A stretch of DNA of 64,000 nt from Pseudomonadota bacterium (GTDB lineage: Bacteria > Pseudomonadota > Alphaproteobacteria > Rhodobacterales > Rhodobacteraceae), in NCBI GenBank assembly GCA_039182515.1, contig JBCDCE010000012.1, forward strand, positions 47 to 64,046, written 5' to 3'. A program made the position numbers and the translations under genes. Below the pieces are notes generated by a model. It was not told where the DNA came from, did no database searches, and saw nothing but the letters and a program-made list of their open reading frames with translations. Positions 35,337 to 40,196 of the stretch are shown one piece after another (positions within the stretch are counted from its first letter, which is position 1; each line of letters opens with the position of its first letter).

Positions 35337-35368
35337 GGCCCGGGATTTCCCGGGCCTTTTGTCTTTTT
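35337..35368 (+). terminator. Rho-independent terminator after the BMP gene
   Basis: 8-bp GC stem GGCCCGGG / CCCGGGCC with a 4-nt loop, followed by TTTTGTCTTTTT. Confidence 0.75.
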
Positions 35369-35637
35369 GATCATCTTTTGATAAGTTTCGTCTCGAACGG
35401 TTAAGAATCACTCGATTTTTTTGCCAAAAAATATGGTGGCGTTAACCATCCCGTTAACAAATAGTTAGCGGGAAACCAAAAACTGTGGCCGAAATTTGAC
35501 CTAAATGTGGTGTTTCCGCTACACACAAACCACAACTACTAGTTGCATCGCCACATTCCGAACAAATTCTTTGACTCAAACCCGCGCCAGGGCAATCGCT
35601 GTAATGTCAATACACATCTTACTTTCGGAGCCTGACC

Positions 35638-36171
35638 ATGACTGCCATCACAAAACGCCTCGATGTCGCGAACAAAGCACCAGCTTTTAAGACTGACTTC
35701 GCTCACGTTTCACCTGCTGCGGGTGTTGAAGTAGCGAACAAAGCGCCATCGTTCCGGACAGACTTTGCAAACAAAGCACCTGCCTTCGCAAACGACGTTG
35801 AAATTGCAAACAAAGCACCGTCTTTCTCCGTAGACGTCGCCAACAAAGCACCAGCCTTCCGCGTCGATGTGGCGAATAAAGCGCCTGCGTTCGACGTAGA
35901 AGTTGCAAACAAAGCGCCAGCCTTCCGCGTCGATGTGGCAAACAAAGCACCTGCGTTCGACGTAGAAGTTGCAAACAAAGCACCAGCGTTCCGCGTCGAC
36001 GTGGCAAACAAAGCGCCTGCTTTCGACGTAGAAGTTGCAAACAAGGCACCAGCCTTCCGCGTCGATGTGGCAAATAAAGCGCCTGCTTTCGATGTCGAAA
36101 TCGCTAACAAAGCGCCATCCTTTCGTGTAGAAGTTGCAAATAAAGCGCCTGCTTTTGATATCGCAGCCTGA
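35638..36171 (+). CDS. Tandem-repeat protein of 177 aa with 14 copies of ANKAP[AS]F; candidate multi-core precursor peptide
   Basis: ATG preceded by GGAG 7 nt upstream. The protein reads MTAITKRLD-(VANKAPAFKTDF)-AHVSPAAGVE-(VANKAPSFRTDF)(ANKAPAFANDVE)(IANKAPSFSVD)-[VANKAPAFRVD VANKAPAFDVE]x4-(IANKAPSFRVE)(VANKAPAFDIAA). Copies differ at synonymous positions only in this frame. No signal peptide and no Cys. Confidence 0.7.
   Translation: MTAITKRLDVANKAPAFKTDFAHVSPAAGVEVANKAPSFRTDFANKAPAFANDVEIANKAPSFSVDVANKAPAFRVDVANKAPAFDVEVANKAPAFRVDVANKAPAFDVEVANKAPAFRVDVANKAPAFDVEVANKAPAFRVDVANKAPAFDVEIANKAPSFRVEVANKAPAFDIAA
35836..36099 (+). repeat. Four near-identical 66-bp (22-codon) tandem units inside the repeat gene
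   Basis: The unit GTCGCCAACAAAGCACCAGCCTTCCGCGTCGAT GTGGCGAATAAAGCGCCTGCGTTCGACGTAGAA is repeated 4 times. Third-position changes include GCA/GCG, CCA/CCT, GCC/GCG/GCT, AAC/AAT, AAA/AAG and GAT/GAC. Confidence 0.9.
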
Positions 36172-36188
36172 TAAGGACAAACTCCAAC

Positions 36189-36983
36189 GTGAAGGACGAT
36201 AAATCCCTTCAACCTGAGTTTAGCGTCCCAGATTCTGGGGCGCTTGCTCGTTTTTATCGCTGGGTTCCAAGTGCAAGCCAGCCCGTTCCCGCGGATGCCT
36301 CTGCAGGAGGTACACTTCCGATGCGTGCGTTTCGCTACTGCGAACCCATTCGGACAGCCTCACAGATGGGCTGGTATGTGTTCCCGCCAATGGATTTCTC
36401 GTTGATTTGGGACGGGACGCGCATCAATTGGACCTGCGAAGGAGCGCCGGGATGGATGGATCTCGACAGCGCGCAATTCCCTGAATTCCCAGAACATTTT
36501 AATGCTCATGCCCCAGAAGGCATAGAAGGGTACTCTCCGCCTTTCCTAGCCTCGACCCTTGCGCAAGGTGTCTTGCAGGTTTGGTCCGGCATCGTCGCTC
36601 GTACGGCACCTGGATGGTGTTTACTGGTGCGAAACCCTGCCAATATCCCGCGTGTCCACCACGCTGAAGGCTTCGAAGGAATCGTTGAAACCGACCGCTG
36701 GTTTGGCCCACTTTTTACCAATTTACGCCTCACAAAGACCGATACTCGGGTCGATTTCCGCCGTGATCATCCCCTATTCCAAATCCAACTGATCCATAGA
36801 TCTATGCTCGACAATAAGTTGTCGCAGCGGATGGAAAAGGTTGCTGGACTGGATGAAATGACGGTAGAAGACTGGGAAGATTATCGCGCCACGATTGTGG
36901 AGCGTGTTGGTGCCAAGCGAGTGCCCGGCGATTATGCTAAGACCTCGCGAAAAATGAGGAAACGGGATGACAGTCAGGCTTAG
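36189..36983 (+). CDS. Hypothetical protein with no family recognisable by eye; candidate partner or modifying enzyme of the repeat peptide
   Basis: 264 aa from the GTG at 36189, 17 nt after the repeat-gene stop. An alternative ATG at 36321 (MRAFRYCEPIRTASQMGWYVFPP) is preceded by a strong AGGAGG. No TM segment or signal peptide. The basic C-terminal tail is KTSRKMRKRDDSQA. Confidence 0.65.
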   Translation: MKDDKSLQPEFSVPDSGALARFYRWVPSASQPVPADASAGGTLPMRAFRYCEPIRTASQMGWYVFPPMDFSLIWDGTRINWTCEGAPGWMDLDSAQFPEFPEHFNAHAPEGIEGYSPPFLASTLAQGVLQVWSGIVARTAPGWCLLVRNPANIPRVHHAEGFEGIVETDRWFGPLFTNLRLTKTDTRVDFRRDHPLFQIQLIHRSMLDNKLSQRMEKVAGLDEMTVEDWEDYRATIVERVGAKRVPGDYAKTSRKMRKRDDSQA

Positions 36984-38133
36984 AGGACTGCCAGCTTTTG
37001 GCATGGTGCTCGTAAGTACGGCTTACGTTGTCGAGATATCGACATTTCCTCTTATTCTTCCCGCACTCGCAGAGTCGCTCAACATACTCGTGCAGTCCTC
37101 CCAGGCGCGCATGCTTGTCGCCTTTTATAAAATTGCGCTTGTTATCTCGCTTTTGTTTGGTGGATGGCTTGGTGATCGGCTCGGAAAAGAAGTTATTTTT
37201 ACCGTTGGAACGGCCATTTTCTGCCTCGCAAGCTTTGCACTTTTGCTGAGCCCAAATGCGGAAGCAGCATTGATTGCGCGCGCTCTACAAGGTTTTGGTG
37301 CCGGGCTGTTTTCGCCTATGGTGCCAGCGCTTTTGAGTGCACATAGTCCACAAAACCCAGTGCGTGCCCTTGCGAGATGGGGGCTGGTTACCGGCATCGC
37401 CGCAGCGACTTACCCAATCTTTGCGGAACAGTTAATTCGACTGTTTGGCTGGTCTGGTGGATGGGTCGTAATTCCCTTGGTCGCAGGCCTCTCCCTGTTT
37501 GGCCTTCCCCGCACAAAAGATGTTAAAGACCCACCAGAGCCGGCTAAAATACACACGTCGTTACGCGATATCAGCATCCCCGTATGGGCCATATTGGCTT
37601 ATGTTTTTCTTAATTACGGGATCACCACCTGGTTCATTTACGCCATGGCGATCAACATGCCAGCGGGCACAGGCATGTATAATATTGGTCTCTTGATGGC
37701 TGTGCTCTGGGGCACCTTTAGCATCAGCAACATCGCAGTTGAGAAGCTGTGGAACGGTTGGGCTTCTGGCGCCCGGCTTTTGGTTGCCGGAGCACTTTTG
37801 AACACGACGGGTGTTTGGATCTTTGGTGCTTTTGGCGTCCAGCCCATTTGCTGTGTTTTGGCCGCTTTGTTGATTGGCATGGGGATGGCGTTGAACAACG
37901 TACCGACCACTGAAATGGCTTTCGAGCTGTCCGACCGCACCATGCATGGCCGCGTCGCCTCGCTAGATATCGTGGCCGCGCGCTTGGGTGGCGCTGTGTT
38001 TGTGGTCTGGATCCCAATTGTTGGCTGGGAAGGCGTCATTGCAAACACATGGGCAGCGTTGATCTCTTTGATGATGGTGGCCTACGCCGCGAGCCAACAT
38101 GCTACCTACCATCAGGCTTCCCAACGCGCTTAA
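36967..38133 (+). CDS. MFS transporter (12-TM, exporter-like)
   Basis: 388 aa with MFS motif A GGWLGDRLGKE. Its ATG overlaps the upstream gene by 17 nt. Confidence 0.85.
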   Translation: MTVRLRGLPAFGMVLVSTAYVVEISTFPLILPALAESLNILVQSSQARMLVAFYKIALVISLLFGGWLGDRLGKEVIFTVGTAIFCLASFALLLSPNAEAALIARALQGFGAGLFSPMVPALLSAHSPQNPVRALARWGLVTGIAAATYPIFAEQLIRLFGWSGGWVVIPLVAGLSLFGLPRTKDVKDPPEPAKIHTSLRDISIPVWAILAYVFLNYGITTWFIYAMAINMPAGTGMYNIGLLMAVLWGTFSISNIAVEKLWNGWASGARLLVAGALLNTTGVWIFGAFGVQPICCVLAALLIGMGMALNNVPTTEMAFELSDRTMHGRVASLDIVAARLGGAVFVVWIPIVGWEGVIANTWAALISLMMVAYAASQHATYHQASQRA

Positions 38134-38153
38134 GCTGTGGCAGGCCTCAGGGC

Positions 38154-39086
38154 ATGACAGCACTTAGAACACTTTCGGGATCAACGCCCAAACCCTATAT
38201 CTTCGGCACCATGCAATGGGGCGACAGAGCCGATGAAGCCGCGTCGCGCGCCATGTTTGAAGCATGCCAGGCAGCAGGCATCTGCCATTTTGATACGGCC
38301 CATGTTTATACAAACGGCAACTCCGAAACCCTGCTTGGCAAATTCGCGTCTTCTGAACGCGAGGCTCTCTATGTCGCCACGAAGGTTGCCTACACGGGGG
38401 GATCAGGGCGCGCAAATATCACGCGGTGCTTCGACACAAGCCGCCAGCGGCTCAATATGGATGTGGTTGATCTGCTCTATTTGCATCGGTTCGACGATCA
38501 AACCCCACTTGCCGAGACCTTTGAGACCTTGGCTGATTTACAATCCAAGGGGCTGATCCGGCACATCGGCGTCTCAAACTTTGCCGCCTGGCAGGTCGTG
38601 AAGGCCCAGGGTGTTGCCGCAAGCTTCGGAACCCGTATTGATGTCATCCAACCGATGTACAGCCTTGTGAAGCGCCAAGCAGAAGTGGAAATTCTGCCCA
38701 TGGCGCATGACCTTGGGCTCGTCGCAGCAACCTATTCACCTTTGGGTGGAGGCTTGCTCACTGGCAAATACGTAAAAGGAGCCACAGGCCGCCTGACAGA
38801 AGACACACGCTATGCCGCGCGCTACGGGCAAACCTGGATGCACAGCACAGCGGAAACCCTTGCAGATTTGGCGCACACCGAAGGCGTCTCTCCTGCCACC
38901 CTAGCGGTGGCCTGGGTCGCGAAACATAAGTTGGCTCCACAGCCAATCCTCTCAGCACGCTCAGTAGATCAGCTTCAGGCTTCGCTGGAGGCCGTTCCAT
39001 TTGAGATGTCTGATTCCCTATACGCGCAGATCACCTCGCTTTCGATTGCGCCAGCTCCTGCCACAGACCGGCTCGAAGAGGCATGA
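38154..39086 (+). CDS. Aldo/keto reductase
   Basis: Trimmed to the ATG at 38154 (MTALRTLSGSTPKPYIFGTMQWG...DTAHVYTNGNSE). Starts 20 nt after the MFS stop. Confidence 0.85.
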   Translation: MTALRTLSGSTPKPYIFGTMQWGDRADEAASRAMFEACQAAGICHFDTAHVYTNGNSETLLGKFASSEREALYVATKVAYTGGSGRANITRCFDTSRQRLNMDVVDLLYLHRFDDQTPLAETFETLADLQSKGLIRHIGVSNFAAWQVVKAQGVAASFGTRIDVIQPMYSLVKRQAEVEILPMAHDLGLVAATYSPLGGGLLTGKYVKGATGRLTEDTRYAARYGQTWMHSTAETLADLAHTEGVSPATLAVAWVAKHKLAPQPILSARSVDQLQASLEAVPFEMSDSLYAQITSLSIAPAPATDRLEEA

Positions 39087-40162
39087 CACCGCGCGTCGCA
39101 ATCATCGGCGGCGGCATTGCCGGTGTCTCAGCCGCCGCTAAACTCGCCTCCCTGGCCCATGTCACGCTCTATGAGGCCGAGCCAACGCTCAGCTACCATG
39201 CAACAGGCCGGTCTGCGGCGATGTTTTTGGTGGGTTACGGCAATGAGGTTGTTCGCGCGCTCAACCAAGCCAGCGAAGCTGAATTGATCGCGCGTGAGGT
39301 TCTTTCCCCCAAAGGTGTGTTGATGTTGGAGCGCGCAACCGACCATGCTCAGTTTTTGGCAGAAAGCGGCGCTATGGGTCTGCCAGAGATTTCAATTTCC
39401 GAAGCCCAAAGCCTCCTTCCAATCTTAAACGTGGAGAGTGTTGCAAACGCCGCCTACAGCGCCGACGCCACAGCCATTGATACCGACGCTCTTGTGCAAT
39501 CCTATCTGCGCCAAGCACGCAACTTGGGTGCTGTGATCAAGCCTTCGAGCCCGGTTAAGACCCTGACCAAAACGGCAGCCGGATGGGACGTGGTCACCAA
39601 AGAGAGCCGAGATCCGTTCGATTACGTGGTCAACGCGGCCGGCGCTTGGGCGGACCAGATCGCAGAACGCGCGGGCCTAACACCGCTTGGTATAACACCT
39701 TACAGGCGCTCCATGGCTCAACTGCCCTTACCGGAAGGCGCAGAAAACCCAGCGGCTTGGCCCTTCACAATCGCTGCTGGAGAGCGTTGGTACGCGAAAA
39801 TCGTCGCTGGCAAATGGTGGGTCTCGCCTTCCGAAGAAGACCCAAGCGCACCGGTAGACGCCTTTGCCGATGATATGGTCATCGCAGAAGGCCTCGCGCG
39901 CTACGAAGACATGACAACCCAGCCCGTGACACGCGTGGAGCGGGTCTGGGCGGGCTTACGCAGTTTTGCACCCGACCGCGCGTTGGTTTTGGGACCAGAC
40001 CCAAAAGAGCCGAGCTTTCTATGGTGCGCGGGCCAAGGTGGATATGGTTTCCAAACCGCGCCTGCCGCCTCAGATTTTCTGGCGGCCCAGATCTCAAAAT
40101 CTCCCTCACCACTGCCAACTGAAACTATACGCGCACTGAGCCCTAGTCGCTTCACATCGTAG
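39083..40162 (+). CDS. FAD-dependent oxidoreductase (DAO family)
   Basis: MTPRVAIIGGGIAGVSAAAKL dinucleotide-binding motif. ATGA overlap with the AKR stop. Confidence 0.85.
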   Translation: MTPRVAIIGGGIAGVSAAAKLASLAHVTLYEAEPTLSYHATGRSAAMFLVGYGNEVVRALNQASEAELIAREVLSPKGVLMLERATDHAQFLAESGAMGLPEISISEAQSLLPILNVESVANAAYSADATAIDTDALVQSYLRQARNLGAVIKPSSPVKTLTKTAAGWDVVTKESRDPFDYVVNAAGAWADQIAERAGLTPLGITPYRRSMAQLPLPEGAENPAAWPFTIAAGERWYAKIVAGKWWVSPSEEDPSAPVDAFADDMVIAEGLARYEDMTTQPVTRVERVWAGLRSFAPDRALVLGPDPKEPSFLWCAGQGGYGFQTAPAASDFLAAQISKSPSPLPTETIRALSPSRFTS

Positions 40163-40165
40163 CGC

Positions 40166-40196
40166 GACCCAAAGCCACCACTTTGGTCTTTTTCTT
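40166..40196 (+). terminator. Probable rho-independent terminator ending the 35.6-40.2 kb operon
   Basis: gaCCCAAAG-ccacca-CTTTGGtc stem with one bulge, followed by TTTTT. The T-run is also the start of dispersed motif copy C. Confidence 0.5.

Follow-up and report, generated by a model that had tools for sequence, protein, structure and literature searches.

Within a 64,000-nt stretch of contig JBCDCE010000012.1 from a member of the Rhodobacteraceae (assembly GCA_039182515.1; the stretch is called the window below), five co-oriented genes on the forward strand begin with a gene which encodes a short peptide unit repeated in tandem. The locus raises the question whether this repeat protein is the precursor of a small peptide product, and which of the genes behind it belong to the same system. 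An earlier note on this DNA had read all five genes as one layout of precursor, unknown enzyme, exporter and two redox tailoring enzymes. As described here, the functional unit consists of three genes: the repeat gene (35638..36171, 177 amino acids), a gene for a protein of the DUF6065 family (36189..36983, 264 amino acids) and a gene for a transporter of the major facilitator superfamily (MFS; 36967..38133, 388 amino acids). With a probability of about one half, these genes represent a new module similar to those for peptides that are made by ribosomes and modified after translation (RiPPs), comprising a multi-core precursor, a novel maturase and an exporter.

The repeat protein contains 14 units of the form [VIF]ANKAP[AS]F, mostly at a spacing of 11 residues. 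Analysis of the gene by TRF revealed periods of 33 nt and 66 nt, and on the protein level a super-repeat of 22 residues, RVDVANKAPAF-DVEVANKAPAF, was identified. With its minimal 11-residue unit, VANKAPAF(R/D)V(D/E), present 14 times, the window shows the most compact form among the loci compared below. Ahead of the first ANKAP[AS]F core there are nine residues (eight ahead of the V that opens the unit), and four residues (DIAA) follow the last unit, the first three of which fill normal positions of the spacer between units. A signal peptide was not identified in the protein from the window, and a ribosome-binding site, GGAG (35627-35630), is located 7 nt ahead of the ATG. When the eight-codon core was compared among the 14 units, 68, 0 and 367 nucleotide differences were counted at codon positions 1, 2 and 3, respectively, a pattern which rules out a non-coding DNA repeat. 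The pairwise codon differences comprised 321 synonymous and 68 non-synonymous ones, and all 14 units share the residues A, N, K, A, P and F despite varying codons. The repeats are under selection as a peptide and not as DNA.

In Pfam and NCBIfam, no curated family was found for the repeat proteins, and only spurious, repeat-driven matches below the thresholds were obtained. A protein search with the repeat protein gave a single match, owing to compositional filtering, and a six-frame scan of the DNA upstream of DUF6065 homologues was used instead. For this comparison, 80 loci were fetched with their flanks, giving 81 loci together with the window, and the DNA upstream of each DUF6065 gene was scanned in all frames. 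In each of the first three homologous loci inspected, an unannotated open reading frame (ORF) just 5' of the DUF6065 gene was found to encode a repeat protein, with 5 copies of IANKSPAF in Nereida sp. MMG025, 11 copies of the same motif in Pseudaestuariivita rosea and 7 copies of IGNMSPAF in Sneathiella chinensis. In total, about 72 of the 81 loci, the window being counted, have a same-strand repeat ORF directly upstream of DUF6065. The gap between the two genes ranges from roughly 10 to 270 nt, most commonly from about 60 to 220 nt, and amounts to 17 nt in the window. The pairing spans the Rhodobacterales, Rhizobiales, Sneathiella, Acetobacteraceae, Reyranellaceae and Odyssella.

From 66 loci, each represented by one consensus unit, the pattern [D/E]-x-x-x-V-x-Φ-[G/A]-[G/A/N]-x-[S/A]-P-x-[L/F] was obtained. 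Relative to the anchoring Pro, D or E is found at position -11 in 63 of the 66 loci and V at position -7 in 65 of them, while G or A occupies position -4 and L or F position +2. Typical forms of the unit are DAGKVRLGGMSPSL, DAGKVRLGAFAPTL and VEVEMGGMSPLF. The residues within the motif differ between loci (GGMSPSL, GAFAPTL, ANKAPAF), and the pattern is kept. The period varies from 10-11 up to 25 residues, with spacers rich in Pro, Thr, Ser and Ala, and the copy number varies from 1 to 24 units, a spread also known from repeating RiPP precursors such as VarA. Throughout the family, the repeat ORFs have good ribosome-binding sites, short N-terminal extensions (5-25 residues in the members other than the window) and no signal peptide; they stop just after the last unit and reach lengths of 450 codons. 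The single-unit case is present in Muricoccus radiodurans, where a 30-residue peptide, MTKLPVPVRTTPASVADAGRVHLGGFQKSY, is encoded upstream of DUF6065 behind a good ribosome-binding site (L026:5736-5828); this peptide resembles an ordinary short precursor peptide. A variant unit, GKVQVGGIIKKLPV, is present in 4 copies in a metagenome-assembled genome binned as Burkholderiales (L034:687-878). Here, the GKV-x-V-GG half is kept and the Pro is shifted, which suggests that the N-terminal half of the unit is more constrained.

The repeat genes often have not been called, or are labelled 'hypothetical protein' where they have been, as is the case for the copy from Rhizobium annotated by the NCBI pipeline. 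In two loci (L068 and L076), the repeat array is partly masked by runs of N, which implies that repeat genes are easily lost in assemblies and annotation. A literature search returned no paper mentioning DUF6065, PF19541 or the motif strings, and searches combining RiPP with dUTPase or with terms for repeat precursors returned no account of this system. Likewise, no rival annotation of the pair, as RiPP, defence system or other domain, was found. The cassette of repeat peptide and DUF6065 thus appears to be widespread in Alphaproteobacteria and undescribed.

The partner encoded by the second gene had been called an orphan in the earlier note. This is not the case, since the protein is a clear member of Pfam DUF6065 (PF19541), with a score of 70.4 bits, the gathering cut-off being 26.6 (E=2e-19, residues 49-244). 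In a word-indexed search, 2,133 clusters of homologues at 90% identity were obtained, all of which carry PF19541. At 50% identity, the clusters number 1,285 with E<=1e-3 and 282 with E<=1e-30, and relatives are present in 515 GTDB species genomes. A lookup of the exact sequence from the window gave no identical record. Nearly all members are single-domain proteins of about 250 amino acids. Two unusual proteins were noted: P0239 (452 amino acids) is a fusion of DUF6065 with DUF6817, an HD-like domain, and in P0125 (313 amino acids) the unit-like segment DVGRIRFGAAAAKPP lies N-terminal to DUF6065 in one ORF, representing either a fusion or a mis-called start. Neither the repeat protein nor DUF6065 was matched by any PADLOC model, and on this basis the pair was ruled out as a defence system.

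An AlphaFold2 model of DUF6065, obtained with an alignment of 32 sequences, showed a mainly β-stranded protein with C-terminal helices (mean pLDDT 83.7, pTM 0.75). When the model was compared to the PDB with Foldseek, the 50 best matches listed were all trimeric dUTPases (E 3e-5 to 1.5e-3, probability 1.00), with TM-scores of 0.6-0.76 when normalised to the target and of about 0.37 when normalised to the query. The model thus has the β-clip or jelly-roll subunit fold of the superfamily of trimeric dUTPases and dCTP deaminases. A comparison of the DUF6065 profile with E. coli Dut and Dcd by hhalign was not significant (probability <1%, E 0.12-0.22), and a sequence-profile search of the PDB gave nothing below E=0.8, the value obtained for BmdC. 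The likeness to dUTPases is therefore one of fold only. Neither the dUTPase motifs I-V nor the active-site motif of Dcd was recognised in DUF6065, and an alignment of ARTAPGWSLL with the Dcd segment HRIDPGWSGC over 10 columns, with a probability of 0.5%, was discounted as evidence. The invariant residues of the family include R46, R49, C51 and E52, located in a conserved loop modelled with low confidence, as well as D75, R148, N152, E163, E167, D169 and N178; an invariant His is not among the conserved residues. From this conservation, the C51/E52 loop and the acidic cluster D75/E163/E167/D169 are candidates for catalytic residues.

The third gene overlaps the DUF6065 gene by 17 nt. Its product belongs to the MFS, with a match to PF07690 (MFS_1) at E=1e-29 over residues 18-345 and 12 transmembrane segments, and its best matches in NCBIfam were drug-efflux families, all of them partial and below threshold. 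The neighbouring genes were analysed by an all-against-all BLASTP clustering of all ORFs of the 81 loci. The loci in which DUF6065 is followed by an overlapping or abutting MFS gene number exactly 10 and coincide with those that have ANK[AS]PxF units; in none of the others does an MFS gene take this position. Six of the 10 are located in chromosomes of the Rhodobacterales (the window and L005-L009), the others being a metagenome-assembled genome of the Paracoccaceae (L010), Mesorhizobium, Aminobacter and Rhizobium leguminosarum. Outside the 81 loci, the Rhizobium plasmid records pSRDI969_1 and WSM4643 also carry the ANK[AS]PxF subtype, and in pSRDI969_1 an MFS gene is again located directly after DUF6065. 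The MFS protein is presumed to be the exporter of the product.

In the reading favoured here, the repeat gene would be translated into a leaderless cytoplasmic polypeptide consisting of back-to-back units of 10-14 residues with the pattern V-x-Φ-[G/A]-[G/A/N]-x-[S/A]-P-x-[L/F]. DUF6065, as a cytoplasmic β-barrel with a dUTPase-like fold, would act on this polypeptide by recognising each unit and modifying it, excising it, or both. One translation product would in this way give rise to many copies (14 in the window) of one short peptide-derived molecule, which in the clade of the window would be released and exported by the translationally coupled MFS pump. The last two genes of the run, for an aldo/keto reductase and a DAO-family oxidoreductase, would be local passengers.

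The amounts of precursor and enzyme may be set by a hairpin just inside the second gene. This RNA hairpin (36222..36244, forward strand) has a stem of 10 pairs and covers codons 12-19 of DUF6065. Hairpins of different sequence are present at the equivalent position in six related loci (L005-L010), with compensatory changes in 6 of the 10 pairs, only seven sequences being compared. In 45% of 67 loci, the segment from the stop codon of the repeat gene through nucleotide 70 of DUF6065 contains a G+C-rich, perfectly paired stem with a length of 10 bp or more, as compared to 6% of 670 random segments of the same length drawn from the same loci as a control. The hairpin is a candidate for an attenuator or partial terminator, which probably would keep the transcript of the precursor in excess over those of the enzyme and the pump. 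Partial terminators after a peptide gene are a familiar arrangement in peptide-antibiotic operons. The structure is also compatible with separate transcription units.

As in RiPP clusters in general, a co-oriented ORF for a presumed precursor adjoining the gene of the presumed enzyme is conserved, in about 72 of 81 loci and with selection on the peptide level. Several points weigh against the assignment as a RiPP-like module. The precursor lacks a leader, and the usual division into a leader (or follower) and a core is not found, with nine residues before the first core and four after the last; recognition elements, if any, would have to be inside each unit. None of the known RiPP maturases or recognition elements (YcaO, LanB/C/M, radical SAM, ATP-grasp, MNIO, PqqD-like) was identified in the five proteins by Pfam and NCBIfam, which returned DUF6065, MFS_1, Aldo_ket_red and DAO-type domains only. 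In DUF6065 itself, no catalytic motif, cofactor site or RiPP recognition element was recognised. As judged from the model, its sole structural relatives are nucleotide hydrolases, a likeness that does not predict peptide chemistry and is compatible with a nucleotide-related role. Most loci contain neither a dedicated transporter nor a dedicated protease. In addition, DUF6065 is present without repeats in four loci (L051, L057, L063 and L064). In two of these, L063 and L064, only a decayed remnant of a unit (VRLGAFEPAS...) was observed about 100-130 nt upstream of DUF6065. In Sinorhizobium medicae plasmid pMl1, a DUF6065 gene (L088:4384-5597, 26% identity) overlaps a non-repetitive upstream ORF of 169 codons, which implies that the wider Pfam family includes a subfamily not linked to repeats. 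Genes for an S8 peptidase, an amidohydrolase and a SAM methyltransferase are located near this S. medicae gene.

The alternative which survives best, and which is a serious possibility while being the less probable one, is that no small peptide is released and that DUF6065 has in the repeat protein not a precursor but a partner which is folded or multivalent, either a β-rich scaffold or a string of short linear motifs. Here, the repeat protein would bind or regulate a probably trimeric and possibly nucleotide-metabolising DUF6065, or be chaperoned by it. A single-sequence AlphaFold2 model of the repeat protein from the window showed a regular β-architecture with one strand per 11-residue unit (pLDDT 64 and pTM 0.63, with pLDDT values up to 78 in the regular part), so that a folded repeat protein is compatible with the prediction. 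The dUTPase fold shared by DUF6065 is that of trimeric enzymes, the fusion to an HD-like DUF6817 in one member of the family points in the same direction, and a protease or a leader is not evident. However, AlphaFold2 commonly over-predicts β-solenoids for perfect repeats, and the hhalign comparison revealed no motifs of dUTPases or dCTP deaminases in DUF6065. A period varying from 10 to 25 residues, spacers rich in Pro, Thr, Ser and Ala, and copy numbers between 1 and 24 are hard to fit to one fold or one stoichiometry. A version of 30 residues with a single unit exists as well. This alternative also leaves unexplained why one subtype is so closely coupled to an MFS pump of the efflux type.

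An extension of the RiPP-like reading goes further and is regarded as doubtful. It states that the arrays form a new and widespread class of ribosomal peptides, with a dUTPase-fold maturase and leaderless arrays of up to 24 units, the product of which would be a secreted signal sensed by a transcriptional regulator. The regulator in question, a BTAD and TPR protein of about 650-730 amino acids, directly adjoins the pair of repeat gene and DUF6065 in 27 loci, which come from several lineages, and is encoded either upstream on the same strand or downstream in convergent orientation (for example, L023:2967-4916, L062:3445-5448 and L072:6751-8865). Two other recurrent neighbours were observed. A secreted non-GDSL lipase-like hydrolase (PF25182) is encoded directly downstream of DUF6065 on the same strand in 18 loci (for example, L059:6800-7579), which belong to the group with GAFAPTL, GGFAPSL and GGYAPTL units. 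A TldD-type metallopeptidase is encoded just upstream of the repeat gene in 33 loci (for example, L065:3641-4570). As a dedicated protease, TldD was discarded, since it is accompanied by ctaA and a histidine kinase in one broad clade, for which conserved synteny is the simplest explanation. The TldD neighbourhood thus probably reflects the synteny of this clade, and a role of TldD in processing is possible. A search of the window for the regulator, the non-GDSL hydrolase and TldD gave none of the three.

It is rather improbable that all five genes form a single biosynthetic cluster in which the aldo/keto reductase and the DAO-family oxidoreductase tailor the peptide, as the earlier note had suggested. 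The aldo/keto reductase gene (38154..39086, forward strand; Pfam Aldo_ket_red, E=4e-66) follows the MFS gene after 20 nt without a terminator in the gap, as judged by a consensus scan, and overlaps by 4 nt (ATGA) with the gene for the DAO-family FAD oxidoreductase (39083..40162, forward strand; Pfam DAO, E=3e-46). The ORF of the aldo/keto reductase can be extended to an ATG at 38049 (38049-38153), resulting in an overlap of 85 nt with the MFS gene. Position 38154 is the likelier start, because the aldo/keto reductase domain begins only at residue 51 of the longer ORF. This tight spacing favours a common cluster, as does the presence of a DAO gene after the MFS gene in L005 and L008. However, no homologue of the aldo/keto reductase was found in any of the other 80 loci, and the DAO gene is located beside the module in three loci of the Rhodobacterales only (the window, L005 and L008), being absent from the other 78. 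The MFS gene is the last gene of the module in the closest relatives L006, L007 and L009, and the Rhizobiales loci have unrelated neighbours, the next gene after the module being on the other strand. The aldo/keto reductase gene, although probably cotranscribed with the module, is not part of the conserved unit and is a lineage-specific passenger; the DAO gene is an accessory gene or a neighbour. The first part of the layout proposed earlier is thus supported, as about 72 of 81 loci pair a repeat gene with DUF6065 and all 10 loci of the subtype have the MFS gene, while the two presumed redox tailoring enzymes are not conserved. Conservation of the aldo/keto reductase and FAD oxidoreductase pair alone had been named in that note as an outcome that would argue against the cluster; the opposite was observed.

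The chromosomal site of the module is shared by other genomes. In five of them, from four related genera, it is located at the same site between genes for a Bmp-type ABC transporter and a dimethylglycine-dehydrogenase-like protein (two Nereida, Pseudaestuariivita and Algirhabdus; in Parasulfitobacter, L007, the visible sequence covers just the downstream flank). The convergent dimethylglycine-dehydrogenase-like gene adjoins the MFS gene in Nereida ignava (L009), and L006 and L007 have a gene for a Hint-domain protein between the two. The shared site implies that the module was not recently acquired by the genome of the window, so that the horizontal acquisition considered earlier is not supported as a recent event. 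The lower G+C content reported for the first three genes is real, yet modest. At third codon positions, the G+C content is 0.46 for the repeat gene, 0.53 for DUF6065 and 0.57 for the MFS gene, as compared to 0.59-0.67 for the flanking genes.

A role of the repeat ORF as a cis-acting leader without a functional peptide, in which aminoacyl-tRNA supply or pausing at x-P-x controls read-through of the hairpin and the expression of DUF6065, is highly improbable, since the conserved hairpin immediately downstream and the repeated codons would fit this explanation, but leader ORFs are short whereas the repeat ORFs reach 450 codons, a pattern of 10-14 amino acids is kept across orders while synonymous sites vary freely, and the exchange of residues within this constant pattern (GGMSPSL, GAFAPTL, ANKAPAF) argues for recognition of the peptide.

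With respect to transcription in the window, the ORFs and the gene junctions given earlier (+17 nt, an overlap of 17 nt, +20 nt and an overlap of 4 nt, from the first to the fifth gene) were reproduced, as were the strong upstream terminator, the AT-rich spacer and the downstream hairpin, the last of which proved to be weak. In the consensus scan, 17 terminator-like sites were counted in the region, as compared to 7.4 ± 3.1 in shuffled sequences. Rho-independent terminators, each with a stem-loop followed by a T-run, bracket the five genes. The upstream one (35337..35368, forward strand) is strong, with an 8-bp stem of G:C pairs only (35337..35356), a 4-nt loop and the T-rich tail TTTTGTCTTT; it closes the operon of the upstream Bmp/ABC transporter and is the 5' boundary of the module. 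The downstream one (40169..40196, forward strand) is real but weak, with a hairpin (40169..40186) of 6 pairs, 3 of them G:C, and the tail TCTTTTTCTT. Owing to the further hairpin at 36222..36244, the five genes are not a uniformly uninterrupted unit.

Between the upstream terminator and the repeat gene, an AT-rich spacer (35369..35637, forward strand; G+C content 0.43) is expected to contain the promoter and leader region; for the segment 35294..35637, the G+C content is 42.7%, as compared to 55.9% for the whole window. The spacer contains a palindrome, CAACTACTAGTTG (35533-35545), and a -35-like box, TTGACT (35571-35576). Both elements have aligned counterparts in L005 and L006 (CAACTTATGGTTG and CAACTTGTGGTTG, followed by TTTGAC; Nereida sp. 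MMG025 and Pseudaestuariivita rosea), and may represent an operator and a -35 box. A simple scan of the spacer revealed no σ70 consensus promoter, and an Rfam search of the spacer and of the junction gave no riboswitch or small RNA near the gathering scores.

If the RiPP-like reading is correct, a role would be assigned to a domain of unknown function which is present in no fewer than 515 sequenced species and comprises about 1,300 clusters at 50% identity. A new enzyme fold would be added to the RiPP repertoire, the dUTPase-like fold not being known to have a link to peptide chemistry, together with a type of precursor that combines recognition and core inside a single unit of 10-14 residues. 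Such units would be attractive for engineering, as one gene would deliver many copies of the product. Among the carriers are roseobacters from the sea, rhizobia (with large plasmids of pea symbionts among them) and Acetobacteraceae that are abundant in soil, which implies that an exported peptide could matter for the association with algae or plants. Should the product in addition be a signal, peptide-based communication between cells would exist in a group whose signalling is thought to depend on acyl-homoserine lactones. If the module is not of the RiPP type, the strict association between a multivalent repeat protein and a protein of dUTPase fold would nevertheless represent unexplained, testable biology.

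Compared to known systems, the module combines features of several. From the trimeric dUTPases, DUF6065 differs by being twice as large, by its query-normalised TM-score of about 0.37 and by the lack of recognised dUTPase motifs. The microcin C system consists of the heptapeptide MccA, the enzyme MccB and the MFS pump MccC, with a terminator hairpin that separates the gene for the peptide from those for the enzymes. As proposed here, the module would share with it a ribosomal peptide of very small size, an enzyme in the cytoplasm, export by an MFS pump and a hairpin between the genes for peptide and enzyme; an invariant Asn in the subtype of the window and an enzyme with a fold like that of nucleotide enzymes are further points of likeness. 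However, a ThiF/E1-like domain of the MccB type is absent from all five proteins in Pfam and NCBIfam, the Asn has an internal position and most of the family carries Gly or Ala in its place, and the precursor is a multi-copy array.

In fungi, Kex2-processed repeat proteins and precursors of the dikaritin type also contain many copies of a short peptide, which are cut into units (PMC7329392). These precursors are secreted proteins with signal peptides and dibasic sites, and they mature in the secretory pathway, whereas the repeat protein from the window contains neither a signal peptide nor a dibasic site and its partner is cytoplasmic.

The closest bacterial parallels are found among repeat precursors of RiPPs. 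The thiovarsolin precursor VarA contains 0-5 imperfect tandem repeats and is encoded in a TfuA-YcaO cluster which includes the MFS protein VarP (PMC6511847). In TvgA, TVGG repeats are modified by the radical-SAM enzyme TvgB, with every repeat being modified and several small products expected (PMC9062424). Both have in common with the present system a tandem-repeat precursor in which each repeat gives one short product, as is proposed here, and a copy number that varies between species, from none or one to several; the var cluster in addition shares the MFS transporter with the module of the window. In contrast, VarA and TvgA have a leader region, which the repeat protein of the window lacks, and their maturases are known RiPP enzymes (YcaO/TfuA and radical SAM), whereas DUF6065 has no link to any RiPP class. 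The arrays identified here are also larger than those of VarA and TvgA, with up to 24 copies of a conserved unit of 10-14 residues.

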